This document shows, one piece after another, positions 1,132-29,288 of a DNA stretch of 40,839 nucleotides (position 1 is its first letter; each line of letters begins with the position of its first letter). The DNA comes from an uncultured Clostridia bacterium (lineage in GTDB: Bacteria > Bacillota > Clostridia > TANB77 > CAG-508). Below the pieces are notes generated by a model. It saw nothing but the letters and a program-made list of their open reading frames with translations, was not told the origin of the DNA and ran no database searches. The DNA lies in contig CANQMG010000003.1 of assembly GCA_947624925.1 (NCBI GenBank), forward strand, positions 1-40,839, given 5' to 3'. The position numbers and the translations under genes are program-made.

Positions 1132-1842
1132 TTGAATTTAGATTTAGTAAATAATTTATTAAATGATTTAAAGGAGAATCAATTTGTGCAAAATTTTATA
1201 AAAGAGTTATCCAATTATTTAGAAGATAAAAATAATTTAAATAGTGAAAATGAAGAAATTCCAATAATAGAAGATATATTGTCAAAAAACAATCTTACAA
1301 CAGGAAATAAAAATGCTATTAGATGGAATTTAGATGATGTTGTATTAAAATATTCACAAGAAAATTCGAGTAATGATGCAATATATTTTATAAAAGATAA
1401 AAAGGATAATGCTTATGCTGCACTAAAGGCAGAAAATGGTAAAATAGAAGAAATAGAAATAAGTAAAAAAGATGTTCCAAGTGAAGTAAAAATAAATGAC
1501 GTTTTAAGAATTAAGAATAATAATTGTGTAATTGATAGTATTGCTACTAAAGAATTGCAAGAAGATATAAGAAATATGGCAAAAGAAATACTAAATAAGC
1601 AGAACATAAATTTAGAAAAACATAGAAAAGAAGGACATTTATATATGGTAACTGAAGAATTAGGGAATAACAGATTCTTATTGGATTTAACGGATGCACC
1701 AAAAACAGAATTTGAAGAGACGGATATTCAAAAAGATTTACTAAGCATAGCAACAGAAGGTATGGTCCTTAAATACACTAATGGAAAATACGAATACTAT
1801 TCAGATGATGGATTTGAAAGAGCTGAAAAAATACATTCATAA
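1132..1842 (+). CDS. Hypothetical protein with DUF3006-like repeats
   Basis: TTG start after AAGGAGTG RBS. Two segments resemble DUF3006 (EIEISKKDVPSEVKINDVLRI..IDSIATKE and DIQKDLLSIATEGMVLKY). The stop overlaps the stop of the convergent ORF. Confidence 0.6.
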   Translation: MNLDLVNNLLNDLKENQFVQNFIKELSNYLEDKNNLNSENEEIPIIEDILSKNNLTTGNKNAIRWNLDDVVLKYSQENSSNDAIYFIKDKKDNAYAALKAENGKIEEIEISKKDVPSEVKINDVLRIKNNNCVIDSIATKELQEDIRNMAKEILNKQNINLEKHRKEGHLYMVTEELGNNRFLLDLTDAPKTEFEETDIQKDLLSIATEGMVLKYTNGKYEYYSDDGFERAEKIHS

Positions 1843-2694
1843 TCTTAAAGTTGGTTGGTATATTTTAAAATCCACACCAGAGATATTGGCTTTCCAACCA
1901 TCCGGAAAAGGTATATTATTATAATTATCTGAAATTAATTTTGCTTGGCTAAAAGCTGTAGAATCTTGTTTTATTTCACCAGTAACTAAATTAACACCAT
2001 CTGGATTAACCATTGGAACAATGTATAATGATATATTATTATATAAAAATCTTGTATTATATCCAAAGATAGTTTCATTATTTACAAAACTTAAACAATA
2101 ATTCTCAATAAAATTCATAAGTAAAGGAGTTGTAATCCATTCATTAGCATGGAAAGAGGCATTATAAAAAACTTCTTTTGAACCTCTACCAATTTTAATA
2201 TAAGGAATTCTATTATTTAATACACTATTTCCAATATACCCAATTTCTATAAAAGGATAAGTATTTTTTAAAGCAGATATATTCATTAAAAGAATAGAAT
2301 AAGAGTAAGAAATACTTGTAGGTACAATTTTATTAAAAGGTACTAATATTCTTTGACCAACAGAAATATTATTAATAGAGGAAATATTAGGGTTTGCAAA
2401 TATTATACGATTTATATTAGAATTAAATTTTTGTGATATAGAATATAAAGTATCTCCTGGTTTAGTTGTATAAATTGTATAACCATATATGTAAGGAAAA
2501 AGTTTATCCCATGTATTATTTCCAACTATACCATCCGTAGGTAAACCAAAGTTATATTGAAAAATTTTTACAGCTGTTTGAGTATTATCACTAAATAAGC
2601 CATCTATAGTGCCAAAATAAAATCCTAATTTTTTTAGAGTAGATTGTAAGAGTTCAACAATTGGGCCTGAAGAACCTAATTTTAAAACTTCCAT
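1837..2694 (-). pseudogene. PG-binding + LysM + M14 gamma-D-glutamyl-meso-DAP peptidase (YqgT/endopeptidase I-like), C-terminally truncated or split
   Basis: PG_binding_1 motif (LKLGSSGPIVELLQSTL...DGIVG..TW), LysM (YTTKPGDTLYSIS), Zn motif HANE and VPMVNPDG. WKANISGVD is followed by a non-homologous FKIYQPTLRL* where GVDLN is expected. Confidence 0.8.
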
Positions 2695-2968
2695 AATATC
2701 ACCTAAAATATTATATTTTAGTAATATACAAAGTGTGATAAAGTTATATACATATATTTTAATTTCTTAATAATAAATTCATATATATATAAACTATAAA
2801 AGTGTACCTAATAAATCATTAGATGATTGTAATTTAATAAAGGATAGTATTTATATAATTGTTATTATTTAACTGAATAGCAATTTATGGGAGAAAATAT
2901 AAATATAAAGCATAAATAATAAAACTTCACATATAAATATAATAAATTATTTATTTGTGAGGTTTTTT

Positions 2969-3679
2969 ATGTTTATATTAAGTAAAAAGAGAATCTTAAT
3001 TGTATTAATATGTTTATGTGTTTCAATATGTAGTACATATATTATAAAAGAAAATATAACAAATAAAACAGTTGAAACAGTTAGTCTTCCTGTTTCAAAT
3101 AAAGTAATTGTAATAGATGCTGGACATGGCAAACCAGATGAAGGGGCACAAAGTAGTAATGGTACAACAGAGGCACAAACAAATTTAAAAATTGCTCTAA
3201 AGGTACAGAATTTATTAGAACAAAGCGGATGTGAAGTTATTTTAACACGTTCTGATGATGAAGCTATATATGATTTAGATAGTAAAACTCTTAAAGATAA
3301 AAAAATTTCAGATATACATAATAGAGTGAAAATTGGAAATGAATCACAAGCGGACATATTTGTATCAATTCATTTAAATAAAATACCTGAGAACCAATAT
3401 TATGGTTGGCAGACATTTTATAAAAAAGATAATGTTGAAGGAAAAAAACTAGCTACATGTATACAAAATAATTTAAATACTTCAATACAAAGAGAAAATG
3501 ATAGAGTTCCTTTAACTATAGATAATGTATATATAATTAAACATGTAGAAATACCTACAGCTATAGTAGAATGCGGATTTTTATCAAATCCAGAAGAAGA
3601 AAAACTATTGTTAGATGATAATTATCAAAATAAATTAGCATGGGGAATATATACAGGAATTATTGATTATTTTATGTAA
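2969..3679 (+). CDS. cwlD: Germination-specific N-acetylmuramoyl-L-alanine amidase (Amidase_3)
   Basis: IVIDAGHG.PDEGA, SIHLN, IVECGFLSNPEE, YQNKLAWGIY; N-terminal TM. ATG 2969 follows GAGG (the ORF track starts at GTG 2957). Confidence 0.85.
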   Translation: MFILSKKRILIVLICLCVSICSTYIIKENITNKTVETVSLPVSNKVIVIDAGHGKPDEGAQSSNGTTEAQTNLKIALKVQNLLEQSGCEVILTRSDDEAIYDLDSKTLKDKKISDIHNRVKIGNESQADIFVSIHLNKIPENQYYGWQTFYKKDNVEGKKLATCIQNNLNTSIQRENDRVPLTIDNVYIIKHVEIPTAIVECGFLSNPEEEKLLLDDNYQNKLAWGIYTGIIDYFM

Positions 3680-3891
3680 AAATCTTTAAAAGCATTGAAA
3701 ATTTTGCCATTTTATAATACAATAATAAACATAATGTGATTACATACCTAAAAAGCTAAAAATAGGTAATAAAAAATCACAAATAGTAAAAAACTTTTTT
3801 AAATACTTGACTAAATGCGACAAACAATTTAAACAAAAATAATTATAATTTTTAATACTTAAGTTTATTTAAAAAAGTATGGGGTGGTAAA

Positions 3892-7991: not shown

Positions 7992-9212
7992 ATGGAACTA
8001 AAGAGCAAATATCAATATACATATTTTATATATCCATATGTTATTGATGAATATAAATATAAAAAATATATTTTAAATTTATTAAAAAACAAAAATATAC
8101 ATATAAAAAATATTGAGCAAGAAAAAGATATAGAAATATATAATTACTTTTTGCCTAGTATAAAAAAATATATGTTTAGTAATTTTGAATTTACAAAAAA
8201 GAAAATAAATAATATAAAAAAACTAAATATAAAAACACAGGCAAATATTTTATCACAATATAATTGCGTTATGTTCGAATACGAACTAAACAAATCAATA
8301 CAAGGAAAAGCTGATTTAGAAAAATGCATATTTTTTGAAATTCAAAAAATTGAAGTAATATGTTTTAATACAGGAATATGTTTTTTAAATATAAAAACAA
8401 ATGTAGAAGGAAGTAATAATTTTTCGGATATATTAGATTTTAATTATAAATTTAAGGATATACAATCAAATAATAGCAAACTAAAAGATTATGAAAATAT
8501 AAAAATACAAACAAGTACATTTAAAGATATTGAAAGCATATCACAAATAATAACAACAATAACTGGAAATAAAAATTATTTAAAAGATTTAAATATACAT
8601 ACAAATAAATTCTTTACATATTCATATGTGTGCTTAGAACAAGATATGTGGAATAAAGAAAATGATTTTGAAAAAATAGAAAAAGATTATATAAAATATA
8701 TAGAACAAATGCCTAGTAATTGTAAAATAAATTATATGGTATTAGAAGAAATTACAAAAGGTGAATATATAAAAATAGGTGCTAATAATTTAGGAGTTGG
8801 TTTGATAACATCTGCTGTTGAATTGGAAAATTATACAAAGCTTCCATATGAGTTTGAAAATCAATATTTATATACATATATTATTGCTTTATATAAAAAA
8901 ATATATTTAGAAGTTATAAAGGACAAACTAGAAAATTACAAAAATATATATAATATTATAAAAAAAACAGAGAAATTTGAAAAAAGTTTTGAACAAAAAC
9001 AAATAACAGAAGATAAATTTGGAAATATATTTTTTGAATATATACAAGAAAAAATAGATTATAGAAAAACATTTGATGAAATAAATAAAATATATGAAAT
9101 AACAAATAAAAACAAGATATATAAGAAATTTCAAAGAAAAAATATTATATTAAAAATTGTATTATTAATATCAATAATAGTGAACATAATATTATTATGG
9201 AAACTTAATTGA
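7992..9212 (+). CDS. Hypothetical protein with C-terminal TM helix
   Basis: 406-aa ORF with GGAGAG RBS, 15 bp downstream of the WG-repeat gene; no family recognised. Confidence 0.7.
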   Translation: MELKSKYQYTYFIYPYVIDEYKYKKYILNLLKNKNIHIKNIEQEKDIEIYNYFLPSIKKYMFSNFEFTKKKINNIKKLNIKTQANILSQYNCVMFEYELNKSIQGKADLEKCIFFEIQKIEVICFNTGICFLNIKTNVEGSNNFSDILDFNYKFKDIQSNNSKLKDYENIKIQTSTFKDIESISQIITTITGNKNYLKDLNIHTNKFFTYSYVCLEQDMWNKENDFEKIEKDYIKYIEQMPSNCKINYMVLEEITKGEYIKIGANNLGVGLITSAVELENYTKLPYEFENQYLYTYIIALYKKIYLEVIKDKLENYKNIYNIIKKTEKFEKSFEQKQITEDKFGNIFFEYIQEKIDYRKTFDEINKIYEITNKNKIYKKFQRKNIILKIVLLISIIVNIILLWKLN

Positions 9213-9270
9213 TGTTTAAAATTTAAAAAATTTGTATATAACATAGATATCATAAATAGAGAGGTAAAAA

Positions 9271-9663
9271 ATGCAAATAACTTGTGGAACAGATATTATA
9301 GAAATAGAAAGAATTAAAGAGTCCATTGAAAATTTGAAAGATGCATTTACAACAAAAATATATACTCCAAAAGAAATAGAATATTGTGAAAGCAAAAAAA
9401 ATGCTAAATATGAGCATTATGCTGCAAGATTCGCAGCAAAAGAAGCAATATATAAAGCAATTTCTCCAATTCTAAATAACAAATACGAAATATCTTGGAA
9501 GGATGCTGAAGTAGTAAATGATATAAATGGAAAGCCATATGTAAATTTTATAAATTATAAAACAGATAAAATAGAAAGTATAGATATAAGTTTATCACAT
9601 TGTAAAAAATATGCCACAGCAAATGTAACTATTTTATTAAAAAATAATTTGGAGGAAAAATGA
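9271..9663 (+). CDS. acpS: Holo-[acyl-carrier-protein] synthase
   Basis: GTDIIEIERI, AARFAAKEA, GKP and SLSH motifs. Confidence 0.95.
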   Translation: MQITCGTDIIEIERIKESIENLKDAFTTKIYTPKEIEYCESKKNAKYEHYAARFAAKEAIYKAISPILNNKYEISWKDAEVVNDINGKPYVNFINYKTDKIESIDISLSHCKKYATANVTILLKNNLEEK

Positions 9664-10442
9664 AATTATATGATTCTCATGCACATTATAATGATGAAAA
9701 ATTTGACGAAGATAGAAAAGAAATAATAGAAAAAATATTAAATGAAAATATAAATTTTATAATTGCGGGATATAATTTAAAATCATCTGAGGATGCAATA
9801 AAAATATCTGAAAAATACAAGCAAATATATTGCACATGTGGAATTTCTCCAAATGATATTATAGAAGATAAAAATCAAATGCTAAAACAATTAAATAAAA
9901 TAGAAGAAATTTCACAAAATAATAAAGTAGTAGCAATAGGAGAAATTGGTTTAGATTATTATTGGAACAAAGAAAATAAAAAAATACAAGAAGAAATGTT
10001 TATAAAACAAATAGAAATTGCAAATAAATTAGATTTACCAATTGTTATACACACAAGAGAAGCAATAAATGATACCTTAGAAATAATAAAAAATAATCCA
10101 GTAAAAAATAAAGGAGTATTCCATTGCTGTCCACTAAATAAATATTTAGTAGAAGAAGCTATTAAAATGGGATTTTATATTTCTTTTTCAGGAGTAATAA
10201 CATTTAAAAATTGTAAAAATGCAGATGAAATAATAAAAATAATTCCTGAGGATAAAATATTAATAGAAACAGATAGTCCTTATTTGGCACCAGAGCCTAA
10301 TAGAGGGAAAAGAAATGATTCAAGAAATGTAAAATATGTAGCTAAAAAAATTGCGATGGTAAAAGGCAAAACAATAGAAGAAATAGCAGATATAACGTAT
10401 AATAATATATCAAAAATATTTAGAAAAATTAAAAGATGTTAA
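9660..10442 (+). CDS. tatD: TatD family DNase
   Basis: DSHAH, IGEIGLDYY, IHTREA, FHCC, ETDSPYLAP. Confidence 0.93.
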   Translation: MKLYDSHAHYNDEKFDEDRKEIIEKILNENINFIIAGYNLKSSEDAIKISEKYKQIYCTCGISPNDIIEDKNQMLKQLNKIEEISQNNKVVAIGEIGLDYYWNKENKKIQEEMFIKQIEIANKLDLPIVIHTREAINDTLEIIKNNPVKNKGVFHCCPLNKYLVEEAIKMGFYISFSGVITFKNCKNADEIIKIIPEDKILIETDSPYLAPEPNRGKRNDSRNVKYVAKKIAMVKGKTIEEIADITYNNISKIFRKIKRC

Positions 10443-10530
10443 ATTTTATAATTATTAATTATAAAATTACTTGAATATTTTAAAATAATGTGTTAATTTA
10501 AATATAAATAAAAAATAAGGAGGTTATATT

Positions 10531-11082
10531 ATGTGGATTGCATTAATAGTTATAGCTGTAATTGTTATAATTTTAATTGCTATTTATAATGGTTTAGTAT
10601 CTTCAAGATTAAAAGTAAAAAATGCATGGAGTCAAATTGATGTACAATTACAAAGAAGATTTGATTTAATTCCAAATTTAGTAGATACTGTAAAAGGATA
10701 TATGAAACATGAAAATGAAACATTAACTAAGATAGCAGAATTAAGAACAGCATGGGCAGGAGCAAATACAGTTGCACAAAAAGCAGAATTAGATAATCAA
10801 TTATCAAGCACATTAAAAACAATTATGGCAGTATCAGAAAATTATCCAGATTTAAAGGCAAATCAAAATTTTTCAGATCTACAAGAAGAACTAAGAAATA
10901 CGGAAAATAAAATATCTTATGCAAGACAATTTTATAATGATAGTGTAACAATGTATAATACAAAATTAGCAGTATTTCCAAATAATATAATAGCTTCAAT
11001 GTTTAGATTTCAAGAAGAAGAATTATTCAAAACAGATGATGATGAAGCTAGAAAAAACGTAAAAGTAGATTTTAATAACTAA
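10531..11082 (+). CDS. lemA: LemA family protein
   Basis: AWSQIDVQLQRRFDLIPNLV, ENYPDLKAN, ARQFYND. Confidence 0.95.
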   Translation: MWIALIVIAVIVIILIAIYNGLVSSRLKVKNAWSQIDVQLQRRFDLIPNLVDTVKGYMKHENETLTKIAELRTAWAGANTVAQKAELDNQLSSTLKTIMAVSENYPDLKANQNFSDLQEELRNTENKISYARQFYNDSVTMYNTKLAVFPNNIIASMFRFQEEELFKTDDDEARKNVKVDFNN

Positions 11083-16351: not shown

Positions 16352-19300
16352 ATGAAAAACAAAGACACTAAAAAAATTAATTTATTATTAAAAAAGGGAA
16401 AAGTAGCAATACCAATTGTATTAATTGCAATAGTAATGTTGCTTAGTTTCTTACTGTATAATGTAGGAAATAATAAGAATAATTTAATAAGTAAGGTAGA
16501 AGAAAACCAAGAGGCATTAAATTCAACTGAATATATATATAGAAAAAATTTAAAGGGATATATTACTAATAACAATATAACTATTTATCCTGATAGAACT
16601 CCTGGTATTATGGAATATAATGTAAGATATGTAGAATTGCAAAAAAAGAATGCTAAAGGGGAGTATGAAACATATTCAAATGCTGAGAATGGTAAGTATC
16701 AATATCTACATGGAGATGTAAATAATGATGGAGAAATAAATAAATATGATGCAGGATTAATATGGGGATATTTAGCTGGTCAAGCTAATCTTACTGAAGT
16801 TCAAAAGTTAGCAGCAGATATAAATGGAGATGGAATATTAAATAATATAGATTATCAAATTATATTATATACTACAGAGTCTAGAGAATATATTATAGGT
16901 AACCCTTCTACTAATGGAGATAATGACAAAATTAATGATAATTTTGATAATTATAATGAAATGAAATTTTTAAAGTCTGATGATGCTAGATTAGTGTTAA
17001 GAGCTTATGGAGGAATGTCAGAAGATGGTGAAAAGAATCCTCAAGAAAACAAAGAAACATTAGTTATTAGAATGTTGGCAGATATTGATTTTGATTATAA
17101 ATTTACATATGAAGAAGTAATATTATATTTAAGAGCATCAGCTAACTTAGAAGAAGATCCGTTAAAAGATGAATTAAAGGAATTATGTAATAAATTAGGA
17201 ATTTCAACTGAATATAGTGAAGGAGATGTAAAAACAGCTAAAGAATTTATAGCAGAACAAATATCTGGTATAATCGAATTAAAGAAAAAAATAAATAATG
17301 CATTATATTATTCAGATACTAATAACCAAGTTATGAAACTAAATATGAATAAAAATTTATTACCAGAGATAGTTGAAGAAGGAGAATATAAACTAGTAAC
17401 AAGAAGATTAAAAAATGCTAATGATGGTGGTAACATTAAATTAAGAGATAAAAATGGTTCAAAAACGCAAGATTTTATTTTGAATCATTCAGAAAATGCA
17501 GAAGAATATGAATTTGTAATAGATAAAACTGCTCCAACTGTTACTGGTACATCTCAAAATCCAAATTCTGATAAATGGACTAACAAAAATGTAACCGTTA
17601 CATTAACTTTTGATGAGGACGTTAAAAAATCAGGAGATAATGAATATAGTAAAAGTCAAGATATTACAATTACTGACAATGGAACTGTTAATACAACATT
17701 TTATGATAAAGCTGGAAATAGTGTAAATGTTCCAACAACTGTTACAAATATAGATAGAACACCAGCTGTGATTTCTGCTAGACCAAGTACTATGGAAGAT
17801 AGTAAAAATTTATTTTTATTAATAACAGCAAATGATGATGGAATTACACAAGAACAGTACATTACAAGTGACTTAAATGGTAACGGAAAAGGAAATGTTA
17901 CTGTTTATAAAAATACTGATAATACAGCTATGACTCTTAGTTCATGTGACAATAATGGAAATAAGGATGCATCTGATAAGAATTATACTAGATGTGATAT
18001 AACAGAAAATGGAACGTATGAGGTTAAAGTTACAGATAAAGCAGGAAATGTAACTAGAACAAGTATTGTTATAGATAATATAGATAAAACATCACCTGTA
18101 TATTCTGTAGTATATAGTACAGTAGACCCAACAAATGGAACTGTAACTGCAACAATATATTTTAGTGAAGAGGTAAAAAAAGAAAACACTAATGAATTTA
18201 ATACAGTATTTAAAGAAGACTTTACTTCTAATGGTACATCAAATAAAAAATTTACAGATAAAGCAGGAAATGAAATAACAGTAAATTTAACAGTTAATAA
18301 TATAGACAAAACTGAACCTAATTTAACAGTTACAAAAAAGATTGAAGGTAGCACAGAATGGACATCTGAAAATGCAACATTAAATATAGTAGCTACAGAT
18401 AGTGATATTGCATTTATAAAAGTAAATGGTGGAGTAATTTCTACTAATGAAACAGAAGTTAATGGTATAGATTACATCGTTACAGAAAATGGAGAATACA
18501 AAGTAGAAGTTATAGATAAAGCTGGAAATGTAAGTGCTAAAAAAGTTACAGTATCTAATATAGATAAAACACCAGCAGTTATATCTGTAAAGCCAAGTAC
18601 AACTAATAAAACAAAATCATTATATTTATTAATAACTGCAAATGATGATGGAATTACACAAGATCAGTATATTACAAGTGATTTAAATACTAGCGGAAAA
18701 GGAAATGTTAGTGTTTATAGAAATAGTGGTTCAAGTACTCTTACAGTTAACTCTTCAGATGGAAATGGTAATACCAGTGCATCTAAAAAGAATTATACAA
18801 AATGTGAAATAACGGAAAATGGAATATATGAAGTAAAGGTAACAGATAAAGCACAAAATATAACAAGAAAAACAATTTTAATAGACAATATTGATAAAAT
18901 TAATCCAACTGAAAAAGTTATATATAGTGAATATGGACCAACAAATAATAATGTAACAGCAACAGTATATTTTAGTGAACCAGTAAGTGTTAGTTTAGAT
19001 AATAAAAATAGTTATAGTAAACAGTACTTTACAACATATACATATGATTTTTCTGAAAATGGTACAAAAACATTAAATTATAAAGATGAAGCAGGAAATG
19101 AAAAGTCAGTAGAATTAAACGTTCAAAATATAGATAAAACAGCACCAAACGCACCTACTATTACAGGAAATCCTACAAATTGGACAAATGAAGATGCTAC
19201 ATTAAATATAACAGCATCAGATAATGATGGTGGATTAGGAATAGCAGAAATAAAAGTAAATGGTGCAATAGTATCAAATACTTCACCAGCTACATATGAG

Positions 19301-22300
19301 GTAGATAAAAATGGTGAATATGATGTAGAAATTGTAGACAAGGCTGGAAATGTTACATCACAAGCTGTTAATGTAACAAAAATAGATAAAGTTGAACCAA
19401 CTGTTCACGTAAATGTTCCAGATTTGAGAGCAAGTGTAGCAAAAACATTAACAGTTGATGCATATGATGGTTTATCAAAAGTAAAAAGTGTAACTGTAAA
19501 TGGAAATACACCTAACAAAGATAATGATAAATATACTGAAACAATAACAGAAAATGGAACATACAAAATTGCTGTAACAGATAATGCTGGTAATACAAAA
19601 ACTATAACTCAAACAGTAGAAAATATAGATCAATCTAAGCCAAATGTAACTATACAATCACCTGGAAGTAGATATATATTATCAAGTGAAAATGGAAAAG
19701 ATAGCAAAACATCAAAAATTACAGCAAAATTACATTCATATGATGAAAATGGAATATTAAAAACAATGTATATCTGGTGCCATGTAAAAGATGAAAAAGT
19801 TACATACCTTGGTAAAGATGGAAAAGAAAAAGATTTAACAGGAGTTACAAAAGGGGACGACGGAGCTTCAATTACTTCTGCAAATATATTAAAGGTACTA
19901 GATGCAGAAGGTGCAAGTGCTACTTGGCAAGAAGTAAATGAAATTACTCAAAACGAACTTGTGTTAGAGCAAGAATTTAAAGAAGCAGGATTATATGTTC
20001 TATTTGCTAAAACAAGAGATAAAGCAAATAACGAATATATTGCATATAAAGAATATGAAATTATAGATGAACCAATTACAAGTGTTACATATAAAGCAGG
20101 AACAGATGAAGAAACAACAGAAGATTTAAGTCAATTTACAGATAATAAGATAACAGAGCCTATGACAATAGAGTTAAAATATGATACTGCTGTAAAATCA
20201 AAAGAAGTAAGCTTTGACCATATAACATATTATGACCCAAATAAATTTGTAATAAGAAAAAATGGAACATTAGTGATAACTGTAAAAGACTGTAATGATA
20301 ATACATATGTAAAAACAGTAGATATTACTAAAATTGATGAAAATAGACCAATAGTTACAATTGAAGAAACAGGAAGAGAAGGAACAACTATTTCTTACAG
20401 ATTACATTGGAACAAAGAAGATATGAACTTTACAACTAATAATGTAATAGTTAAAAATGCAGAAAAATGTAATGGCGATGATGGATTTAAATTTGATGAT
20501 ACTGTTCAAAATGCTGAAGGTGAACCTGATGGAAAAACTGCTACATTAAAAGTTGACTATAAAAATAAAATAAAAAATAATGAGACAAAAGATGTAGAAA
20601 TATATATAAAAGCAGAAGATGCCTTAGATAATGATAGCTATTTAGCATATTATAGTTCAAGAGTAGATAGAAAAGTTCCAGAATTAAAAGAAATAAAGGT
20701 TTATGTTGATCCAAAAGTTGTTACTGTAAATTCAGATATAAGCAGAACAAAGAAAGATTACAACTCAGAAGAAACAATAACTATAGAGGCAATATTTGAT
20801 GAAGATGTTCAATTAACTGAAGATGGAAAATATCCAACATTAAATATATCTTTTGGTGATAATGAATCATTAGAAAAAGTACAAGACGGAGAAGTTCTAG
20901 GAAATGTAATAAAATATACTTATCAGATAAAATCTGGTGATAATGGAAAAATAAGCATAGACGAATTTTCAGGAAAAGTTAAAGATGATCAAGGAAACAT
21001 ATTAAACATACAAAATTATGGAAATATGAATGTAAATACAATAATTGCAGATACAATACTTCCATATGTTACAAAAGTAGATATAACAACAACTGATAAG
21101 AAAACAAACTTAAAAAATGATGATGAAATAACATTTGTAGTAAACTTTAATGAAAGTATCTATAAGAGAAATGAAAATAATGTAGAAAAAATAACTACTG
21201 TTCCTAATTTTAAATTTAAGTTAGGTGAGACAGAAAGAACGCTAAGTAATGGACAATTAAGTGAAGATGGAAAAAAAGTAACATACACATATAAAATAAA
21301 TAATGACAATGGAAAACTTTCATTAATGAGAGATACAGATAAAGCAAAAAATTCATTTGGAAGTTATGGAGATAGTATTGTTTCAGATATTGCAGGAAAT
21401 AAATTTACAGTTGAAAATAATGAAATAAATAAATATGGAATAACTTTAAATGGCGAAGATGTAACAGATAATGGAGATATTGATATTGAATCAGATTCAA
21501 CACCTGTAGCTATTGAAGATATAACAATGACAAATGCAAATGGACATGATGAATATCAAACTGGAGACAGAATAGATATAAAAGTTAACTTCACAGAGGA
21601 ATTATATACATCAGATGGAAAATTATTAACAGATGCTATAAATGAAGATGTAAATAAAAGAGCTTTAAATGGTGATATTAAATATGATGTAATAGATCCT
21701 GAAACAGGAAGTCTACTTGGATATATAATAGATCATGTTGATAGTGAAACTCGTAGAGAGATAAAAGACGAAGTAATATATAAATATCTACCTGACTTAA
21801 TATTAGATATAGATGGAAGAGATATTAAAGATGACCTTGAATTTGAAGATATAGAAAATATTGACGGAAAAACAGTTATAAGCTATTCATATGTAATAAA
21901 ATATGAAGATTATGGTGGAATAGAAGTTGAATCTTATGGAAATAAAGATATATATGATAAAGCTGGAAACAAAACTAATATAAATTATTCAGGAACAGAC
22001 TTTAATTATTATGAAAAAGATAAAGCAATATTTAATACTGGCTCAGTAAAAGTAAATAGAGTTAAAGCACCTTTTGTAAAATACATTGTAAAAGTACAAA
22101 ATGAAAGTGGAGAATGGATTGTAAAAGAAGGTGGAAATTACAAAAAAGGTGATAAAATTCAAATAGTTGCAGGATTTGATGGCTATTTAAGCAGTAATGG
22201 TGAAAAACCAAATGAAAAAAACAATTTAGAAGAATCATATAAAAACCATAATGCAAACTTATATTCACTTAAGATAACAGATGAAGAAGGAAACGAGCTT

Positions 22301-25300
22301 GATACCATAAGACCACTTACAGATGATCATAATCGTAATTCAAATGTTACATTAGCTGTAGGAAAAGAAAGACCAGCCAATAAAACTATTGACAAAAATA
22401 TGGTTATTACATATACATATGACTTAAATAAGGAGAATTTAGACTCAAATATTAAAGTAGGTATATATAACGAAGAAAACGGAAGTAAAGGTACATTAAG
22501 AAATTATAAAGATGAAACATATACTTATTCAAAAGATATATTAAGTAGTTTAGGAATTACTATAGATACAACAATGCCAAAAGCTACAGTAAATGATAAT
22601 GAACTAAAAGCAGGAGAAGAAGAAAACAGTAATAATACATTGGTAGATGAGGCAGATATAGAAGTTAAAGATATAGATATATCATCTTGGACATTAGAAA
22701 AACAGATAACAACTCAAGAAGGCCAAAAAGAATGGATAACAAGTAGAAGCGGAGCCGGAAATCCATATTACTTATATGTAACTACTCCAGGAAAATATAG
22801 ATTAACTTTAATAGATAAAGCTGGAAATACAACAATATATTATTTTGAAATAGTATCATCTAATGATGTTAAAGATGGAATAATAGGACAAAGCGAAAAT
22901 ACAGAAGATTATCCAAAAGAAGATGCACCACTTAAATTTACTGGATTTAATAAATACGAAGATGATGTATTAACTAAAAATGATGTTACAGTATCATTAA
23001 AAGAAGCAAACCATAAATTAAAAGGAGAAGAATCAGAAAATAATTCTTTACAATTACAAAATGGCTTAATAATATCAAAAGTAGAATATGTAGCTGAAGA
23101 TATAAGAATTCATTGGTATGAAGAAAATTATAATCCACAATATACTGAAGTAAAATTTGGTGAAACAACAACACTTTCAAATTTAGATGCAAGTAAAGAT
23201 TATACAGTAAAAGTAACAATAGTAGATACAGCAGGACAAAAACACGAAATTTACTACTATATAACAATAGATCAACAAAAGCCATTAGTAAAAGTAGAAG
23301 TTTCATTAGCAGATAGCACATTAAAAAATAATGATGATATCTATAAAGAAGGAACAAGATTAAATATTTCAGTAATAGTAAACGAGCCAATTTATAATGA
23401 GGATGAAAAAGCTGAAAAAAGGACTTTTGTTACAGCTCCTAAATTAAAAGTATATTTTGGAGAAGGAGAAGAGAAAAAACAAGGAACAGCAAGCAACGGA
23501 TATGCAGTATATCAATTTGGTTCTACATATATATATTCATATGCATATACAATTGGACAAGATGATAATGGACCAATAAGCTTAGAATTTGATAGTAAAG
23601 ATGTATATGATAAAGCTGGAAATAAAATTAATTTATTAGATGATAGTAAAGAGCCAGAACCTGTAGAAGAAGAACATCCAGAAGAGAAAAAAGAAGTTCA
23701 ACCAAGAGTAACATTTAAATATAATGATATTATAGCTGATGCAAAATTACCAACAGTAGATATTAAGTTATATAATGACGATGAAGAAATTACAACAGGT
23801 TATACAAACAAAGATGAACTTAAAGTAGAATTTATTTGGAGTGAAAATGTAACAGGATTTGATGTTTCAGATGTAAGCATTTATGGAATGGGAGAAACAT
23901 TAAGTGAATTTACAGGTCCTTCAGAAGACGGTACACATAAATACACAGCTAAATTAAATACAAGCAGTATTCAAGAGGGAACCATAAGAATTGGTATAGA
24001 ACAAAATGCAGTAAGAGATAAAGCTGGAAATTATAATGTAAGAAAAGAAATTTCTATTATAAAAGATAAAAAAGCACCTACTTTGGAATCACTTACAACA
24101 TATGCAGTAGAGCCATATAAAATTGAAGTAGATGATGAAGTAAGCCCATATAAAGAATACTATAAAGATGAAGAACAAGTTGTAGTTGAAGCTGTATTTA
24201 GTGAGGCAATACAAGATGAAGATCTTCCAACATTAAACCTAAAACTTGGAAAGGCAAATGTTAAAGGAGAAGTAGAAACAGAGGTTTCAGGAGATACAAT
24301 AACATATACTTATACTATAACAGATGGAGATAATGGAGAAATTTCAGTAGGAAAATTTGCAGGAACTGTAAAAGACTTAGCAGGAAACACTAAGAGAATT
24401 GCTGGTAAAGATATAGATGGTGAAACAGTAATTGCAGATACAACAGACCCAGTGCTAAAAACAGTAAATATTAAAACTCAAATAGATAGTACAACACAAC
24501 AACCAAAAACAAATGTAAAAGCTGGAGATACTATAACAATTGAGCTTGAATATAGTGAAAATGTGTATGATTTAGAAGAAAGTGAAGATAAACTTACAAA
24601 TACAATAATAAATTTGGCTAAAGATTTAATAAGTTCAGATTACTTTACATTATCAGATGAAGATGAAATAACAGTTGAAGAAAATAAAGTAATTTACACA
24701 GCTACAATAAATGATAATGTAAATGAAAAATTAAATACAGTAGGGTATAATGGAACTGTTTATGATATTGCAGGAAATGCTTTAACAGCAGAAACTCTAC
24801 CACAAGATACGAAAGTATTAGTAAATGGAAATGATGTAAATAATGATGGTAGTGAAGAAGGAAAAGGTGGAATAGTAGTAGATACTACAAAACCAACTGC
24901 AAATGAAAATTCAATAATAATAGATGCAGTATCAGATATACAAGGAACAGCACCATATTATAAAGCAGGAACAAACTTAACTATAAAAATTAGTTTAGCT
25001 GAAGATATTAAAGTTTGTGAAGGAAATGAATTACAAGGTGGAGTAAAAGTACAACCTATTACTCAATCTGAAATACACTTTGGAGAAGAAGTTTCTGAAG
25101 AAAATATAGGAAAAGGTAAACTAACATTTAAAGGATATGAAGATAAAACATTAATATTTGAATATACAATTGAAGATGGAGATAATGGAGACTTTAACTT
25201 AGTAATACCTGAAAATGCTATAGAAGATTTAGCAGGAAACTTAAATGATGAAATTACAATTGAATATGGAGAGCAAGCAGGAGATAAAAAAGGTGTTGTA

Positions 25301-27508
25301 GCAGATACAATAGCACCAACAATAAATTTACAAAGTGATATTCAATTAAGTAATGGTAGTGGTAATACATTTAATGTTACAGCAAACTTCTCAGAAGATT
25401 TGTATGATGTAAAAGATAATACTAGAACAACTTTAGATTTAGATAATGCTTTACAATTTATTTATACATATAATGGAACAGGAGAAAGAACATCTGTAAA
25501 AGCAAATTCTATAAATGGAAATAAAATTACATATACATTTAATGTAGAAGCTGATAAAGAAGTTGCTACAAGTAAAATAGAGAAAAATGGATTTACAGGA
25601 ACAGCATATGATAGAGCAGGAAATGGATATTCTATGAATCAAACATCTATATTTATAAGAAAAATTACAGTAAGTCTTGCAGATGATGAACAAACAAATG
25701 AATACAATAGATATAAAGCAGGAACAAAAATTAACATTGAAGTAGAATTAAATAAGGAAATTGCTAAATCACAGAATGATCCTACAATAAAAATAAAATT
25801 CGGAGATAGTGAAGAAGAACATGAATTAACAGGAAATATCTCTGATAATAAGATAACATTTGAATATACTATAGCAAATGGAGATAATGGAGAATTAAAG
25901 GTAACACAACTATCTGGAGTAGTAAAAGATGTAAGTTCAGGTAATGATGATACATTTGATTTGGAAGATATGTCTATAGACGGATTAGCAAGAGATACAA
26001 TTATAGCAGATACAACAGCTCCAATAGCCACAGTAACAGTTCAAAATGTTAATAATATAACAAATGCTGATACAATAACTTACAAGATTAAATGGAGCGA
26101 AGAAGTTATAGGATTTGAGGAAAATGATATCAAGGTACAAAATGGAACTATAATAAATTATAAATATGATGAAAATTCAAATGAAGCAACTATAGAAGTA
26201 TTAAAACAAAATGAAGGAAAACAGATTGTATTTATAGCTGCAAATGTATGTGAAGATCAAGCAGGAAATGAAAATATTAGAAGTGAAATAAATAATATAA
26301 CAATAGACACTACAGAACCTACAATAAGGGCAATAGTAAATGGTGGAAATTATGTTATAGATAGTAGTACACAAAAATCTAAGATAGAAACAAAATTAGA
26401 AATAAGTGAAGAAATATCTAGCTTAAAATACAAATGGTCAAAAGAAACTGCTGAAAATGTAGATATGTCAGATGCTACAGAAGTTGATTTAACAGACTTA
26501 GATATAAACGATATACCAATTGCAACAGAAATATCTGAAGAAGGAACTTGGTATTTATATATAACAGCAACAGATATTGCTGGAAATACTAAAAATGCTA
26601 AAACAAAAGCATTTAACGTAAAAGCATCAACAATTGAAATTACTCTAAGCAAGGAAGAAAAAACAAATACAGATATTGTAGCAAATGTAAAATACGGAGA
26701 ATATCTAACAGAAAAACAACTTCTAAGAATTGGAGAACAAGGCTCAGCAGATGCAAGTAAAATTACTGTTAAAGAAAATGGAACTGTACATGCAGAAGCT
26801 ACTGATGGACATGGAAATAAAGTAATAGCAGAAAAAGAGGTTACAAACATATTCAAAAATCCACCAGAAGTAAAAGTAACTGAAGATGCAGGAACAATAA
26901 CAGTAGAAACAACAGATAATGGAGCTGGTATAAAATCTACAACAGTAAAAGGACCAGACGGAGAAAATATAGAACAAAATGAGGACGGAACATATACTGT
27001 AACAGAAAATGGAACATATACTGTAACTGTAGAAGATGAAGCTGGTAATGTAGTAGAAAAGGAAATTGAAGTAAAAGATCTTGATTTACAAGTTGAAACA
27101 GATTATACTATAGTAGAAAAAGACTCTAAGAAATATATAAAGGTAAGTCCAAATACAACAGCTAGTGATATAATAAAGAATGTAAAAGTCTTGAAACAAG
27201 AAAATGCTACAAAAGAAGTTTATGACAAAGATAAAAAGGTTTCTGATAGTGATAAATTAAAAACTGGTGAAGTAATGAAAATTAATGGAGAAGAAACATA
27301 TATAATTGTTGTAAATGGAGACTTAAATAAAGACGGAAATATTTCAATATCAGATTTTGGTTTACTAAATGATTATATACTAGAAAGAAAAAAGAATTTG
27401 GAAACTGTAGTTTTAATTGCTGCTGATGTAACTAATGATGGTGAAATAACAATATCAGATTTTGGTAAATTAAATGCATACTTATTAGGAAGAAATGTAA
27501 GTTTATAA
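16352..27508 (+). CDS. Giant (3718 aa) secreted/surface Ig-like repeat protein with N- and C-terminal dockerin domains
   Basis: AAGGAG RBS; N-terminal hydrophobic helix; dockerin GDVNNDGEINKYD...AADINGDGILNNID (about 16706-16870); many IDKTxP...ENG.Y...DKAGN and Y.Y.I..GDNG...D.AGN repeats; terminal GDLNKDGNISISD...AADVTNDGEITISD dockerin (about 27317-27505). Confidence 0.88.
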   Translation: MKNKDTKKINLLLKKGKVAIPIVLIAIVMLLSFLLYNVGNNKNNLISKVEENQEALNSTEYIYRKNLKGYITNNNITIYPDRTPGIMEYNVRYVELQKKNAKGEYETYSNAENGKYQYLHGDVNNDGEINKYDAGLIWGYLAGQANLTEVQKLAADINGDGILNNIDYQIILYTTESREYIIGNPSTNGDNDKINDNFDNYNEMKFLKSDDARLVLRAYGGMSEDGEKNPQENKETLVIRMLADIDFDYKFTYEEVILYLRASANLEEDPLKDELKELCNKLGISTEYSEGDVKTAKEFIAEQISGIIELKKKINNALYYSDTNNQVMKLNMNKNLLPEIVEEGEYKLVTRRLKNANDGGNIKLRDKNGSKTQDFILNHSENAEEYEFVIDKTAPTVTGTSQNPNSDKWTNKNVTVTLTFDEDVKKSGDNEYSKSQDITITDNGTVNTTFYDKAGNSVNVPTTVTNIDRTPAVISARPSTMEDSKNLFLLITANDDGITQEQYITSDLNGNGKGNVTVYKNTDNTAMTLSSCDNNGNKDASDKNYTRCDITENGTYEVKVTDKAGNVTRTSIVIDNIDKTSPVYSVVYSTVDPTNGTVTATIYFSEEVKKENTNEFNTVFKEDFTSNGTSNKKFTDKAGNEITVNLTVNNIDKTEPNLTVTKKIEGSTEWTSENATLNIVATDSDIAFIKVNGGVISTNETEVNGIDYIVTENGEYKVEVIDKAGNVSAKKVTVSNIDKTPAVISVKPSTTNKTKSLYLLITANDDGITQDQYITSDLNTSGKGNVSVYRNSGSSTLTVNSSDGNGNTSASKKNYTKCEITENGIYEVKVTDKAQNITRKTILIDNIDKINPTEKVIYSEYGPTNNNVTATVYFSEPVSVSLDNKNSYSKQYFTTYTYDFSENGTKTLNYKDEAGNEKSVELNVQNIDKTAPNAPTITGNPTNWTNEDATLNITASDNDGGLGIAEIKVNGAIVSNTSPATYEVDKNGEYDVEIVDKAGNVTSQAVNVTKIDKVEPTVHVNVPDLRASVAKTLTVDAYDGLSKVKSVTVNGNTPNKDNDKYTETITENGTYKIAVTDNAGNTKTITQTVENIDQSKPNVTIQSPGSRYILSSENGKDSKTSKITAKLHSYDENGILKTMYIWCHVKDEKVTYLGKDGKEKDLTGVTKGDDGASITSANILKVLDAEGASATWQEVNEITQNELVLEQEFKEAGLYVLFAKTRDKANNEYIAYKEYEIIDEPITSVTYKAGTDEETTEDLSQFTDNKITEPMTIELKYDTAVKSKEVSFDHITYYDPNKFVIRKNGTLVITVKDCNDNTYVKTVDITKIDENRPIVTIEETGREGTTISYRLHWNKEDMNFTTNNVIVKNAEKCNGDDGFKFDDTVQNAEGEPDGKTATLKVDYKNKIKNNETKDVEIYIKAEDALDNDSYLAYYSSRVDRKVPELKEIKVYVDPKVVTVNSDISRTKKDYNSEETITIEAIFDEDVQLTEDGKYPTLNISFGDNESLEKVQDGEVLGNVIKYTYQIKSGDNGKISIDEFSGKVKDDQGNILNIQNYGNMNVNTIIADTILPYVTKVDITTTDKKTNLKNDDEITFVVNFNESIYKRNENNVEKITTVPNFKFKLGETERTLSNGQLSEDGKKVTYTYKINNDNGKLSLMRDTDKAKNSFGSYGDSIVSDIAGNKFTVENNEINKYGITLNGEDVTDNGDIDIESDSTPVAIEDITMTNANGHDEYQTGDRIDIKVNFTEELYTSDGKLLTDAINEDVNKRALNGDIKYDVIDPETGSLLGYIIDHVDSETRREIKDEVIYKYLPDLILDIDGRDIKDDLEFEDIENIDGKTVISYSYVIKYEDYGGIEVESYGNKDIYDKAGNKTNINYSGTDFNYYEKDKAIFNTGSVKVNRVKAPFVKYIVKVQNESGEWIVKEGGNYKKGDKIQIVAGFDGYLSSNGEKPNEKNNLEESYKNHNANLYSLKITDEEGNELDTIRPLTDDHNRNSNVTLAVGKERPANKTIDKNMVITYTYDLNKENLDSNIKVGIYNEENGSKGTLRNYKDETYTYSKDILSSLGITIDTTMPKATVNDNELKAGEEENSNNTLVDEADIEVKDIDISSWTLEKQITTQEGQKEWITSRSGAGNPYYLYVTTPGKYRLTLIDKAGNTTIYYFEIVSSNDVKDGIIGQSENTEDYPKEDAPLKFTGFNKYEDDVLTKNDVTVSLKEANHKLKGEESENNSLQLQNGLIISKVEYVAEDIRIHWYEENYNPQYTEVKFGETTTLSNLDASKDYTVKVTIVDTAGQKHEIYYYITIDQQKPLVKVEVSLADSTLKNNDDIYKEGTRLNISVIVNEPIYNEDEKAEKRTFVTAPKLKVYFGEGEEKKQGTASNGYAVYQFGSTYIYSYAYTIGQDDNGPISLEFDSKDVYDKAGNKINLLDDSKEPEPVEEEHPEEKKEVQPRVTFKYNDIIADAKLPTVDIKLYNDDEEITTGYTNKDELKVEFIWSENVTGFDVSDVSIYGMGETLSEFTGPSEDGTHKYTAKLNTSSIQEGTIRIGIEQNAVRDKAGNYNVRKEISIIKDKKAPTLESLTTYAVEPYKIEVDDEVSPYKEYYKDEEQVVVEAVFSEAIQDEDLPTLNLKLGKANVKGEVETEVSGDTITYTYTITDGDNGEISVGKFAGTVKDLAGNTKRIAGKDIDGETVIADTTDPVLKTVNIKTQIDSTTQQPKTNVKAGDTITIELEYSENVYDLEESEDKLTNTIINLAKDLISSDYFTLSDEDEITVEENKVIYTATINDNVNEKLNTVGYNGTVYDIAGNALTAETLPQDTKVLVNGNDVNNDGSEEGKGGIVVDTTKPTANENSIIIDAVSDIQGTAPYYKAGTNLTIKISLAEDIKVCEGNELQGGVKVQPITQSEIHFGEEVSEENIGKGKLTFKGYEDKTLIFEYTIEDGDNGDFNLVIPENAIEDLAGNLNDEITIEYGEQAGDKKGVVADTIAPTINLQSDIQLSNGSGNTFNVTANFSEDLYDVKDNTRTTLDLDNALQFIYTYNGTGERTSVKANSINGNKITYTFNVEADKEVATSKIEKNGFTGTAYDRAGNGYSMNQTSIFIRKITVSLADDEQTNEYNRYKAGTKINIEVELNKEIAKSQNDPTIKIKFGDSEEEHELTGNISDNKITFEYTIANGDNGELKVTQLSGVVKDVSSGNDDTFDLEDMSIDGLARDTIIADTTAPIATVTVQNVNNITNADTITYKIKWSEEVIGFEENDIKVQNGTIINYKYDENSNEATIEVLKQNEGKQIVFIAANVCEDQAGNENIRSEINNITIDTTEPTIRAIVNGGNYVIDSSTQKSKIETKLEISEEISSLKYKWSKETAENVDMSDATEVDLTDLDINDIPIATEISEEGTWYLYITATDIAGNTKNAKTKAFNVKASTIEITLSKEEKTNTDIVANVKYGEYLTEKQLLRIGEQGSADASKITVKENGTVHAEATDGHGNKVIAEKEVTNIFKNPPEVKVTEDAGTITVETTDNGAGIKSTTVKGPDGENIEQNEDGTYTVTENGTYTVTVEDEAGNVVEKEIEVKDLDLQVETDYTIVEKDSKKYIKVSPNTTASDIIKNVKVLKQENATKEVYDKDKKVSDSDKLKTGEVMKINGEETYIIVVNGDLNKDGNISISDFGLLNDYILERKKNLETVVLIAADVTNDGEITISDFGKLNAYLLGRNVSL
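17749..18900 (+). repeat. Internal duplication in the giant gene (810-bp offset)
   Basis: TPAVIS.(R/K)PST...LLITANDDGITQ.QYITSDLN..GKGNV...KNYT.C.ITENG.YEVKVTDKA occurs at about 17749-18090 and about 18559-18900. Confidence 0.85.
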
Positions 27509-27515
27509 TAAAATA

Positions 27516-27599
27516 TTGATTTTATAGAAATATTTGATTATAATATAGTTAATAATATTATAAAATAATTTAGGCAGGCATATTTTCTGCCTGCCTAAA
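27516..27599 (+). promoter_or_regulatory. sigmaA promoter plus 5'-UTR GC stem-loop upstream of the cohesin gene
   Basis: TTGATT-17 bp-TATAAT (27516-27544); 12-bp stem TTTAGGCAGGCA/TGCCTGCCTAAA (27569-27599) with no downstream U-tract. Confidence 0.6.
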
Positions 27600-27618
27600 C
27601 AAAGAAAAGGAGAGAAAT

Positions 27619-28440
27619 ATGAAAAAGACAATTAACGTAATATTATTTTTAATGCTCAGTTTAATTCTACTAACGACTACAGTATTAGCAGAAAACATAA
27701 CAGCTAGTATGAGCCCAAGTTCAAATTCTGTAAAAACAGGTGATACATTTACAGTATCTATTAATCTAAGTAATTCAGAAGGTTTAAATTCAGGAAAAGG
27801 AACAATAACTTATAGTAGTGATGTTTTAACCTTGGAAAGTATAAGTGCAGGAGATTCAACCGCATGGAGTCAACCTACTAAAGAAGATAATGGAAATGGA
27901 CAAGCTACATTTACAATAGCTAGGAATTCATATGATGTAAGTGGAAATAAAATTGTAACATTAACATTTAAGGTTAAGGAAAATGTAACAGTAGAACAAA
28001 CTGTTATTTCAGTATCTAATTTTACAGTATCAAACAGTAATTATGAAGATGTTGATGTTCCAGATGCAAATGTAACAGTTAAAATAACAAATGCTAATGC
28101 TGGAACTGGCAATGATACAGGAAACAATGGACAAGGTGGAAATACAGCAACTGTGGATCCAAGTGGTGTAGTAGATACAAATAGTGTAGCAGATCCAAAT
28201 AGTTCTGGAAATACACAAACACCATCAAATACAAACACAAATCAAAATGCAAATACAAATCAAAATGTAAATACAAGTAACAATAAAAATACAAATACAA
28301 ATTTAAATCAAAATAAGAATACAGCAAAAGGAAAATTACCACAAACAGGATTAAACTCAATATTACCAATACTTATTATTGCAGTAATAGCAATAGGAAT
28401 AGGAACATATGCATCATATAGAAAATATAAAAATATGTAA
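27619..28440 (+). CDS. Sortase-anchored single cohesin-like domain protein (LPQTG)
   Basis: Signal peptide; cohesin-like VKTGDTFTVSINL...ITYSSDVLTLESI...IVTLTFKVKEN; N/T/Q-rich linker; LPQTG, TM helix and basic tail RKYKNM. Confidence 0.8.
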   Translation: MKKTINVILFLMLSLILLTTTVLAENITASMSPSSNSVKTGDTFTVSINLSNSEGLNSGKGTITYSSDVLTLESISAGDSTAWSQPTKEDNGNGQATFTIARNSYDVSGNKIVTLTFKVKENVTVEQTVISVSNFTVSNSNYEDVDVPDANVTVKITNANAGTGNDTGNNGQGGNTATVDPSGVVDTNSVADPNSSGNTQTPSNTNTNQNANTNQNVNTSNNKNTNTNLNQNKNTAKGKLPQTGLNSILPILIIAVIAIGIGTYASYRKYKNM

Positions 28441-28451
28441 ATAAAATTTAT

Positions 28452-28492
28452 AATAAATGGGGGTAGATTATGATTCTACTCTCTTTATTTTT
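28452..28492 (+). terminator. Intrinsic terminator
   Basis: GGGGTAGA...TCTACTCT stem followed by a T-rich tract. Confidence 0.6.
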
Positions 28493-28627: not shown

Positions 28628-28990
28628 ATGTATAAAATAATTTTTTATCAAAATATTAAAGGATATAGTGAAGTAGAAGAATATATCAAAGAGCTAAGAG
28701 ACAGTAAAAATAAAAATTGCAGAATACAGCTAACTAAAATAACAGCATACTTAAACCTTTTATCTGAAAAAGGGTTATCAATAGGAGAGCCATATATAAA
28801 ACATCTTAAAGGAGATATATGGGAATTAAGACCTATAAGAAATAGAATACTTTTTGCTAATTTTAATAATAATAAATTTATATTATTAAGCAAATTTATA
28901 AAGCAAACTCAAAAAACACCTAAAAAAGAAATCGAAAAAGCAGAAACCTATTTAAAAGATTATAAAACAAGGAGGCAAAATTATGAGTGA
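28628..28990 (+). CDS. RelE/ParE-superfamily toxin (Gp49/HigB-like)
   Basis: G..IGEPYIKHL.GDIWELRP...RILF...F.K.TQKTPKKEIEKA. Confidence 0.88.
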   Translation: MYKIIFYQNIKGYSEVEEYIKELRDSKNKNCRIQLTKITAYLNLLSEKGLSIGEPYIKHLKGDIWELRPIRNRILFANFNNNKFILLSKFIKQTQKTPKKEIEKAETYLKDYKTRRQNYE

Positions 28991-29288
28991 GAAAGAATTA
29001 ACTTGGGAAGAAGTTAAAAAAAGTTTAAAATTTACACCTAATGAAGAAGCTGAAATACAGCTAGAAATGGATATAATTGAAGCAACAATTGCAGCTCGTA
29101 AGGAAAATAATCTTACTCAAAGAGAGCTAAGTGCAAAAAGTGGTATAAAGCAACCGGTTATTGCTAGAATTGAAAAGTTTATTAATTCACCTCAAACTAA
29201 TACCCTTATAAAACTTTTATATCCAATGGGGTATACAATAAAAGTAGTCCCACTAGATAAAACATTAAAGAGTAAAAATAATAAATAA
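28983..29288 (+). CDS. XRE-family HTH antitoxin (HigA-like)
   Basis: ARKENNLTQRELSAKSGIKQPVIARIE..P...TLIKLL; overlaps the toxin stop; toxin-first order. Confidence 0.88.
   Translation: MSEKELTWEEVKKSLKFTPNEEAEIQLEMDIIEATIAARKENNLTQRELSAKSGIKQPVIARIEKFINSPQTNTLIKLLYPMGYTIKVVPLDKTLKSKNNK

Follow-up and report, generated by a model that had tools for sequence, protein, structure and literature searches.

How is a bacterial surface protein of 3718 amino acids (aa) fixed to its cell when it has a dockerin at either end and lies next to a gene for a single cohesin on a sortase-type tail? The arrangement is found in an uncultured Clostridia bacterium of CAG-508 (GCA_947624925.1; here G000), in a window that is the complete contig C3 of 40,839 nucleotides (nt); on its plus strand the gene of the giant protein (P0001; 16352..27508) is followed by that of a 273-aa anchor protein (P0002; 27619..28440). 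Comparison of sequences points to a non-cellulosomal cohesin-dockerin surface display system in which the C-terminal dockerin of the giant docks on the adjacent cohesin, a reading to which we assign a probability of about 0.68. The G000 assembly comprises 1.28 Mb in 98 contigs (completeness 100%, contamination 4.2%), with a GC content of 25.8%. Comparisons were made within a sample of 41 genomes that included G000, 24 others of the same family and 16 from four sister families, and within a genus set of 11 genomes (G000-G010), of which G006 is only 83% complete.

Modules of the giant and of the adjacent anchor protein

For the gene downstream of the giant, a preliminary description, made from the sequence without database searches, had proposed a product with a signal peptide, a cohesin-like domain, an N/T linker and an LPQTG motif, and Pfam, AlphaFold2 (AF2) and Foldseek agree with that layout. 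P0002 comprises a signal peptide (aa 1-24), a cohesin (aa ~28-157), an N/T-rich linker, LPQTG (aa 240-244; nt 28336-28350), a hydrophobic helix and an RKYKNM tail. The Pfam family Cohesin (PF00963; cut-off 24.1 bits) matched aa 33-147 with 39.3 bits, and with 41.8 bits in the genome scan. In the AF2 model of aa 31-160, block means of the predicted local distance difference test (pLDDT) were mostly 85-96, with one 10-residue block at 75, and a Foldseek comparison of the cohesin returned 157 PDB matches at E <= 0.001, all of them cohesins among the matches listed. The best was 2vo8, a cohesin of a Clostridium perfringens GH33 protein (template-modelling score 0.89 on the target, root-mean-square deviation 1.7, 14% identity), which bears out the cohesin fold attributed to this product. 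Relatives in the databases were few (15 at E <= 0.001, the best with 49% identity), and a scan of metagenome contigs with P0002 gave one contig of 1118 nt at 31% identity, too short to show neighbouring genes.

The anchoring part of P0002 scored 15.9 bits with the NCBIfam profile LPXTG_anchor, exactly its cut-off, and 13.4 bits with Pfam Gram_pos_anchor, below the cut-off of 20; nine of 12 aligned relatives keep the LPXTG motif and the tail, and IAQTG and IPYTG occur as variants. Nine sortase-domain matches were found in G000, and P0002 has the architecture of sortase-anchored single cohesins of the ScaE / Sca2 type, with signal peptide, cohesin, LPXTG motif, tail and a sortase in the genome.

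The giant is the longest open reading frame in G000 and contains no internal stop. Dockerin loops resemble EF hands: positions 1, 3, 5, 9 and 12 are acidic or polar and a helix comes next. The duplicated loop is present by sequence in both dockerins of the giant (DVNNDGEINKYD, DINGDGILNNID, DLNKDGNISISD and DVTNDGEITISD, the last with T at position 3). These duplicated calcium-binding loops had been quoted for both ends beforehand, and all four quoted strings are in the protein. The N-terminal dockerin (aa 120-171; 16709..16864, plus strand), with the loops DVNNDGEINKYD and DINGDGILNNID, matched Pfam Dockerin_1 (PF00404; cut-off 22.9 bits) with 43.8 bits and an E-value of 3e-11 as a fragment, and with 46.6 bits in the genome scan; it also matched dockerins in the PDB. 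At the other end, a conserved pre-dockerin segment and the dockerin itself (aa 3656-3712) form a C-terminal module (27221..27505, plus strand; alignment A2), whose Pfam match covers nt 27317-27487 with 39.0 bits and an E-value of 9.6e-10 as a fragment and was found again in the genome scan. Scored over its whole length, the giant reached 55.6 bits for Dockerin_1 in two stretches, and a phmmer search of the whole giant against the PDB returned dockerins only, at aa 118-171 and 3652-3714.

By self-BLAST, identity between the N- and C-terminal dockerins is 38-42%, and inspection confirms that their recognition residues differ, as had been supposed. The loops of the C-terminal dockerin, DLNKDGNISISDFG and DVTNDGEITISDFG, are nearly symmetrical and its halves near-identical (…ISISDFG… / …ITISDFG…), whereas the N-terminal dockerin is asymmetric (…NKYDAG…W… / …NNIDYQ…). 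Ahead of the latter, a Kyte-Doolittle scan found the only hydrophobic segment of its kind in the giant (aa 18-36; 16403..16459, plus strand), which is conserved in alignment A3 and could either be cleaved off as a signal peptide or stay in place as a signal anchor; by eye it shows no clear A-x-A site, and this segment had not been mentioned in the preliminary description. Behind the N-terminal dockerin, a helical segment at aa ~205-265 (16964..17146, plus strand) is, by eye, a tentative candidate for a second, degenerate dockerin-like module; it gave no match to any hidden Markov model, and the loop is cleaner at the same place in the G006 orthologue. Because the AF2 model of the N-terminal 420 aa, built on the five rows of alignment A3, was unusable (mean pLDDT 38), the fold of the N-terminal dockerin and of this segment is judged from sequence.

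Between the two modules lies a body of ~3,200 aa (aa ~380-3600; 17489..27151, plus strand), which had been described as beta-rich D(K/L)AGN repeats. That is loosely right, with 19 copies of D.AGN in the giant, nine of them DKAGN, except that the body is not uniform: self-BLAST separates two Ig-like repeat classes, A at aa ~380-1100 and ~3430-3580, and B at aa ~1440-1700, ~1830-1940 and ~2310-3320, along with non-repetitive stretches. Pfam found Big_12 in the body, with weak BiPBP_C and Filamin, and the protein Atlas, consulted for aa 1100-2320, gave Big_12, Big_13 and Big_3 clusters only, all Ig-like. No catalytic or SLH family was found in the giant by Pfam, NCBIfam or sequence search of the PDB, and a motif scan of its sequence gave no LPxTG-like motif, so that the earlier statement that the protein lacks all three stands.

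Linkage and joint divergence of the two genes

Seven genomes of the genus (G000, G002, G004, G005, G006, G009 and G010) share the order AI-2E transporter, giant, small LPQTG cohesin, RNase III, with giants of 1869-3718 aa and LPQTG cohesin proteins of 229-273 aa. In the other four (G001, G003, G007 and G008) the transporter gene lies directly beside that of RNase III, from which 83-272 nt separate it. Both genes are thus present in seven of the 11 genomes, neither in four and a single one in none, and the linkage in relatives on which the preliminary description had staked its case is found. Beyond the genus, Dockerin_1 occurs in 23/24 genomes of the same family (G000 excluded), 9/16 of the sister families and 33/41 of all; the corresponding figures are 18/24, 2/16 and 21/41 for Cohesin, and 19/24, 0/16 and 20/41 for proteins like P0002. 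Of the 46 Pfam cohesin matches in the 41 genomes, 19, spread over 14 genomes, are preceded on their own strand by a Pfam dockerin at a distance of 132-338 nt, against a chance expectation of ~0.1, a rough estimate that takes ~4 dockerins per 1.3-Mb genome and treats genomes that are kin.

Focusing on the seven genomes with both genes, we compared matrices of pairwise identity by Mantel permutation. The cohesin and C-terminal dockerin matrices correlate with r 0.93, equalled by 6 of 5040 permutations, and after removal of G000 with r 0.91, equalled by 6 of 720; with RNase III, the cohesin gives r 0.29 and the C-terminal dockerin r -0.01. Both matrices show the same groups, namely {G005, G006, G010}, {G002, G004}, G009 alone and G000 alone. 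The pair G005 and G009 locates the divergence: identity is 96% for the transporter and 91% for RNase III, as against 56% for the cohesin and 49% for the C-terminal dockerin. At the DNA level, in 300-nt windows, the two genomes are ~90% identical (78-98%) across the transporter gene and the body of the giant; identity is 60-75% between a point ~420 nt short of the stop codon of the giant and the end of the cohesin gene, and 83-88% in rnc. These patterns, drawn from aligned sequences, show plug and socket diverging or being exchanged together, within limits that match those of the modules, and are strong circumstantial evidence for a matched pair. A prediction of the complex between cohesin aa 25-162 (alignment A1) and the C-terminal 95 aa (A2) scored 0.22 and 0.07 against a mark of 0.32, and was counted neither way.

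If the giant is displayed in this manner, the 273-aa protein would be secreted and its LPQTG motif joined covalently to peptidoglycan by sortase, leaving the single cohesin held outward on a disordered N/T-rich linker. The giant would then be exported and its C-terminal dockerin would plug into the P0002 cohesin in a calcium-dependent manner, tethering ~30 Ig-like domains to the wall as an adhesin-like fibre that, extended, might measure on the order of 100 nm. The binding itself, its calcium dependence, the shape of the fibre and its adhesive role are what we infer. The same wiring, each dockerin gene with a cohesin-like anchor gene of its own behind it, would serve two GH73-like autolysins encoded elsewhere in the genome.

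Other dockerins and cohesins, and competing explanations

Dockerin_1 has four matches in G000, on three proteins: the giant and two GH73-like proteins of ~540 aa. In one of the latter the N-terminal part matches Staphylococcus aureus Atl / AtlE glucosaminidase structures and is joined by SH3 and a C-terminal dockerin; the other has SH3, two Big_2 domains and likewise a C-terminal dockerin, and a frame change apparently splits it. An anchor-type gene comes after each of these two genes, in one pair on the minus strand of contig C45 (332-3356; locus L002) and in the other on the minus strand of C5 (7341-10916; L001), where the enzyme gene seems frame-split and the open reading frames 10221-10916 and 8618-10243 overlap. 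Such autolysin and anchor gene pairs also occur in G004, G005, G006, G009 and G010. Immediately after each autolysin gene lies one for a protein in which a small beta domain and two cadherin-like domains stand between a signal peptide and a membrane helix. By hhalign, the 425-aa downstream protein has a cohesin-like beta domain (94.6%), and the 446-aa protein downstream of the C45 autolysin reaches a probability of 81% against alignment A1 over 52 columns, mostly signal peptide. All three dockerin genes of G000 therefore have a cohesin-like gene downstream, a possible one in the 446-aa case, and the "two-gene system" of the preliminary description was too narrow.

Pfam cohesins number three in G000, each in a separate small single-cohesin protein with a sortase-type tail: LPQTG in the window, LPKTG in a 333-aa protein on C5 and TPKTG in a 277-aa protein on C68, whose Pfam match lies below the cut-off. 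A cellulosome was considered and rejected: there is no multi-cohesin scaffoldin, the dockerins sit on three proteins only, none of them a plant-wall enzyme, and searches of G000 found no GH5 or GH9, so the system is non-cellulosomal, as originally proposed. A search for GH48 was also blank, as was its control.

Some further observations concern these gene families. Two of the nine sortase matches of G000 adjoin the other sortase-type cohesin genes (C5:10980-11240, possibly truncated, and C68:3373-3891), and nine matches amount to an unusually heavy investment in wall-anchored proteins for a 1.28-Mb genome. A 2336-aa protein of G009 (C1:389921-396931; L037 422..7432) has eight calcium-loop motifs, several Pfam dockerins in its first half and a PPTG-type tail, and a sortase-like gene follows. 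In G013 (C82:5840-6811) and G019 (C17:16261-17665), a cohesin and a dockerin share one open frame (1795 and 1055 aa, respectively), and these frames may encode fused cohesin-dockerin adaptors within the family.

The N-terminal dockerin of the giant has a different history from the C-terminal one. Its entire module is shared within the genus by G006 only (42% identity over aa 13-474), and among 1.84 billion representative proteins it is covered only by three fragments and, at full length, by one further protein (P0022, 2600 aa), the remaining matches being generic dockerins; many of the proteins matched by the N-terminal dockerin in this library bear 5-13 dockerin-like stretches each. A scan of public genome contigs with the N-terminal 483 aa yielded 57 pattern matches, none of which was confirmed. 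Between G000 and G006, the N-terminal dockerin is identical at 38/54 positions (70%), whereas identity is 35% for the C-terminal dockerins and 33% for the adjacent cohesins; the difference between 70% and 33% suggests a conserved partner other than the adjacent cohesin, and we infer from these alignments that the N-terminal dockerin is a second, different plug. A search of five genus relatives gave no partner candidate common to G000 and G006, the latter at 83% completeness: the LPKTG cohesin on C5 has a homologue in one of the five (G004), and the cohesin part of the C68 protein in none. Looping on one cell, bridging between cells or carrying exchangeable tips, which the preliminary description had offered as roles for a second dockerin, are speculation.

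Several points weigh against docking of the giant on the adjacent cohesin. The evidence for cohesin-dockerin binding here is comparative throughout, and it comes from related genomes, which are non-independent samples. Because neighbouring genes are passed on and recombine as one, linkage alone could account for both their joint presence and their joint divergence, and a single recombination tract could also give the divergence pattern. Outside the 19 adjacent cases, four of the 46 cohesin matches have a dockerin downstream only and 23 have none within 1 kb. The four genus genomes in which both genes are missing have one dockerin match each (in frames of 557-654 aa) and no Pfam cohesin, so the dockerins of this lineage may not always need a recognisable cohesin; either the partner there is too divergent for the profile, like the 425- and 446-aa proteins, or the dockerin works alone. 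The giant might also be retained in the membrane by its N-terminal hydrophobic segment, and with its far end tethered to the wall it would then form an odd loop.

Nor do the two genes need to form one operon, since a hairpin and a promoter-like site lie between them. The hairpin (27568..27600) has a 13-bp stem, a minimum free energy of -25.7 kcal/mol (z -4.6) and no U-tract on the plus strand, and the site before the cohesin gene, TTGATT-17-TATAAT (27516..27544, plus strand), is a consensus match in a region where promoter-like sites are no more frequent than in shuffled versions. Six genus relatives (L030-L035) have in the same intergenic region a different, conserved double hairpin, with GGGGCAAG / CTTGCCCC as its second stem, followed by a promoter-like TTGAT…TATACT and, like the hairpin of the window, lacking a U-tract. 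Transcript processing, stability or partial termination are possible functions of these hairpins, and the arrangement of sites suggests that the cohesin gene may also be transcribed on its own. A terminator-like hairpin with a T-run was found by sequence scan after the cohesin gene (28459..28483, plus strand).

Alternatively, the N-terminal segment might hold the giant in the membrane of its own cell while the C-terminal dockerin gripped the cohesins of neighbours, or both ends might dock, giving cell-cell cohesion or looping and not simple display of a free fibre. Such an arrangement suits the lone hydrophobic segment, which is 19 residues long, is conserved in the subfamily and shows no obvious site for cleavage, as does the fact that the signal peptides of other giants in the genus look cleavable (ending in AYA or VYA) and that those giants gave no N-terminal dockerin match; however, a plausible I-M-A cleavage site is present in the G006 orthologue and nothing in the present data is a sign of cell-cell contact, and we regard this explanation as unlikely. 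Somewhat less credible still is that the true ligands of the adjacent cohesin are the N-terminal or autolysin dockerins, that the C-terminal dockerin binds elsewhere and that adjacency reflects co-regulation only. In G000, four dockerins could pair with four to five cohesin-like modules, and Ruminococcus bromii Sca2 binds several unrelated dockerins, according to passages of PMC4611034, but it is the C-terminal dockerin that co-varies with the P0002 cohesin and lies in the same divergent cassette, the N-terminal one remains 70% identical where that cohesin falls to 33%, and each autolysin has a gene of its own downstream that is cohesin-like or, in the 446-aa case, possibly so.

The dockerin-like modules might also bind no cohesin at all and serve as calcium-stabilised structural or ligand-binding units, the cohesin-fold protein being an unrelated wall protein. 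The excess of dockerins would fit, with 33/41 genomes against 21/41 for cohesins and 116 dockerin against 46 cohesin rows among the matches listed, as would the genomes that have dockerins and no Pfam cohesin; but adjacency far above chance (19/46 against ~0.1, by the rough estimate given above) and the joint presence, absence and co-variation of the two genes make this very improbable. Docking of the C-terminal dockerin on the adjacent cohesin can also be extended into a broader proposal, in which cohesin-dockerin binding would be the general means of surface mounting in this lineage of uncultured gut Clostridia with 1.1-1.7-Mb genomes, with a private, rapidly co-diversifying pair for each cargo (giant fibre or autolysin), and the giant would be a bridge with its C-terminal plug in the wall socket of its own cell and its conserved N-terminal plug in a different socket on a sister cell, another bacterium or an exchangeable tip. 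We hold this combination to be unlikely; if true, it would amount to an attachment organelle built of swappable modules, in an organism that may depend on partners.

Known systems and the surroundings of the locus

Among solved structures, the C. perfringens cohesins (2vo8, 2jh2 and 2w1n), which act in enzyme-enzyme complexes, have the closest folds and likewise come from a non-cellulolytic clostridial source, but by their PDB titles they are modules inside secreted glycoside hydrolases and not stand-alone sortase-anchored proteins. The classical cellulosome (C. thermocellum CipA with its SLH anchors) uses the same two module families, with dockerin cargo inserted into a cohesin anchor, whereas the system described here has no multi-cohesin scaffoldin, SLH domain, carbohydrate-binding module or dockerin-bearing plant-wall enzymes.

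A nearer parallel in the way of working is found in Ruminococcus flavefaciens, where, according to passages of PMC4266597, the XDoc of CttA binds CohE of ScaE, which is anchored to the wall via a sortase motif. There a one-cohesin sortase protein fixed to peptidoglycan holds a non-enzymatic adhesin by its C-terminal dockerin (PMC4266597; PMC11557425), as P0002 would hold the giant here. The two differ in that CttA has cellulose-binding modules and operates within a cellulosome, whereas here no cellulases are detectable and what would be carried is an Ig-repeat protein of 3718 aa that has another dockerin at its N-terminus. The likeness to ScaE is one of working, and the best structural match is a C. 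perfringens cohesin and not CohE. Passages of PMC4611034 term Sca2 of R. bromii, the amylosome anchor, a general surface anchor, mention that R. bicirculans has one dockerin and one cohesin, associated with a GH73 enzyme, and state that few examples exist of cohesin-dockerin pairs at work outside polysaccharide-degrading complexes; a 2024 genome survey lists non-cellulolytic "scaffoldin-containing" microbes (PMC11557425). R. bromii, from those passages, likewise uses a sortase-motif cohesin as a surface anchor in a non-cellulolytic gut Firmicute, with cargo that is mainly amylases, in contrast to the separate dockerin-then-cohesin gene pairs seen here, one of which carries a giant fibre protein.

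A limited literature search gave no title or abstract on a giant with dockerins at both ends or on this lineage. The present system differs from the known ones in its small-genome uncultured host, its two-dockerin Ig-repeat giant, the layout of one pair per cargo, the joint presence and absence of the two genes and their cassette-like co-divergence. A family of uncultured gut Clostridia with very small genomes keeps cohesins and dockerins with no cellulases found, and in G000 the pair is mounted on the largest protein and on autolysin-like enzymes. The sharp boundary of co-divergence is a natural specificity-swap experiment, offering matched and mismatched pairs for the study of how specificity evolves. 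If the binding is true, display of adhesins and autolysins on the wall would be a main, and possibly the original, use of these modules, and the lineage would be a source of new orthogonal connector pairs.

The genes around the pair are unrelated housekeeping genes: an exo/endonuclease-phosphatase family gene and the AI-2E transporter gene precede the giant, and a Gp49/HTH pair, RNase III (rnc) and a radical SAM gene follow the cohesin gene. The Gp49/HTH pair (28628-29288), made up of a Gp49/HigB-like gene (PF05973) and an HTH_3 gene, is toxin-antitoxin-like and is found at this place in G000 only, the cohesin gene being followed directly by rnc in G002, G005, G006, G009 and G010, the five relatives in which rnc was seen.

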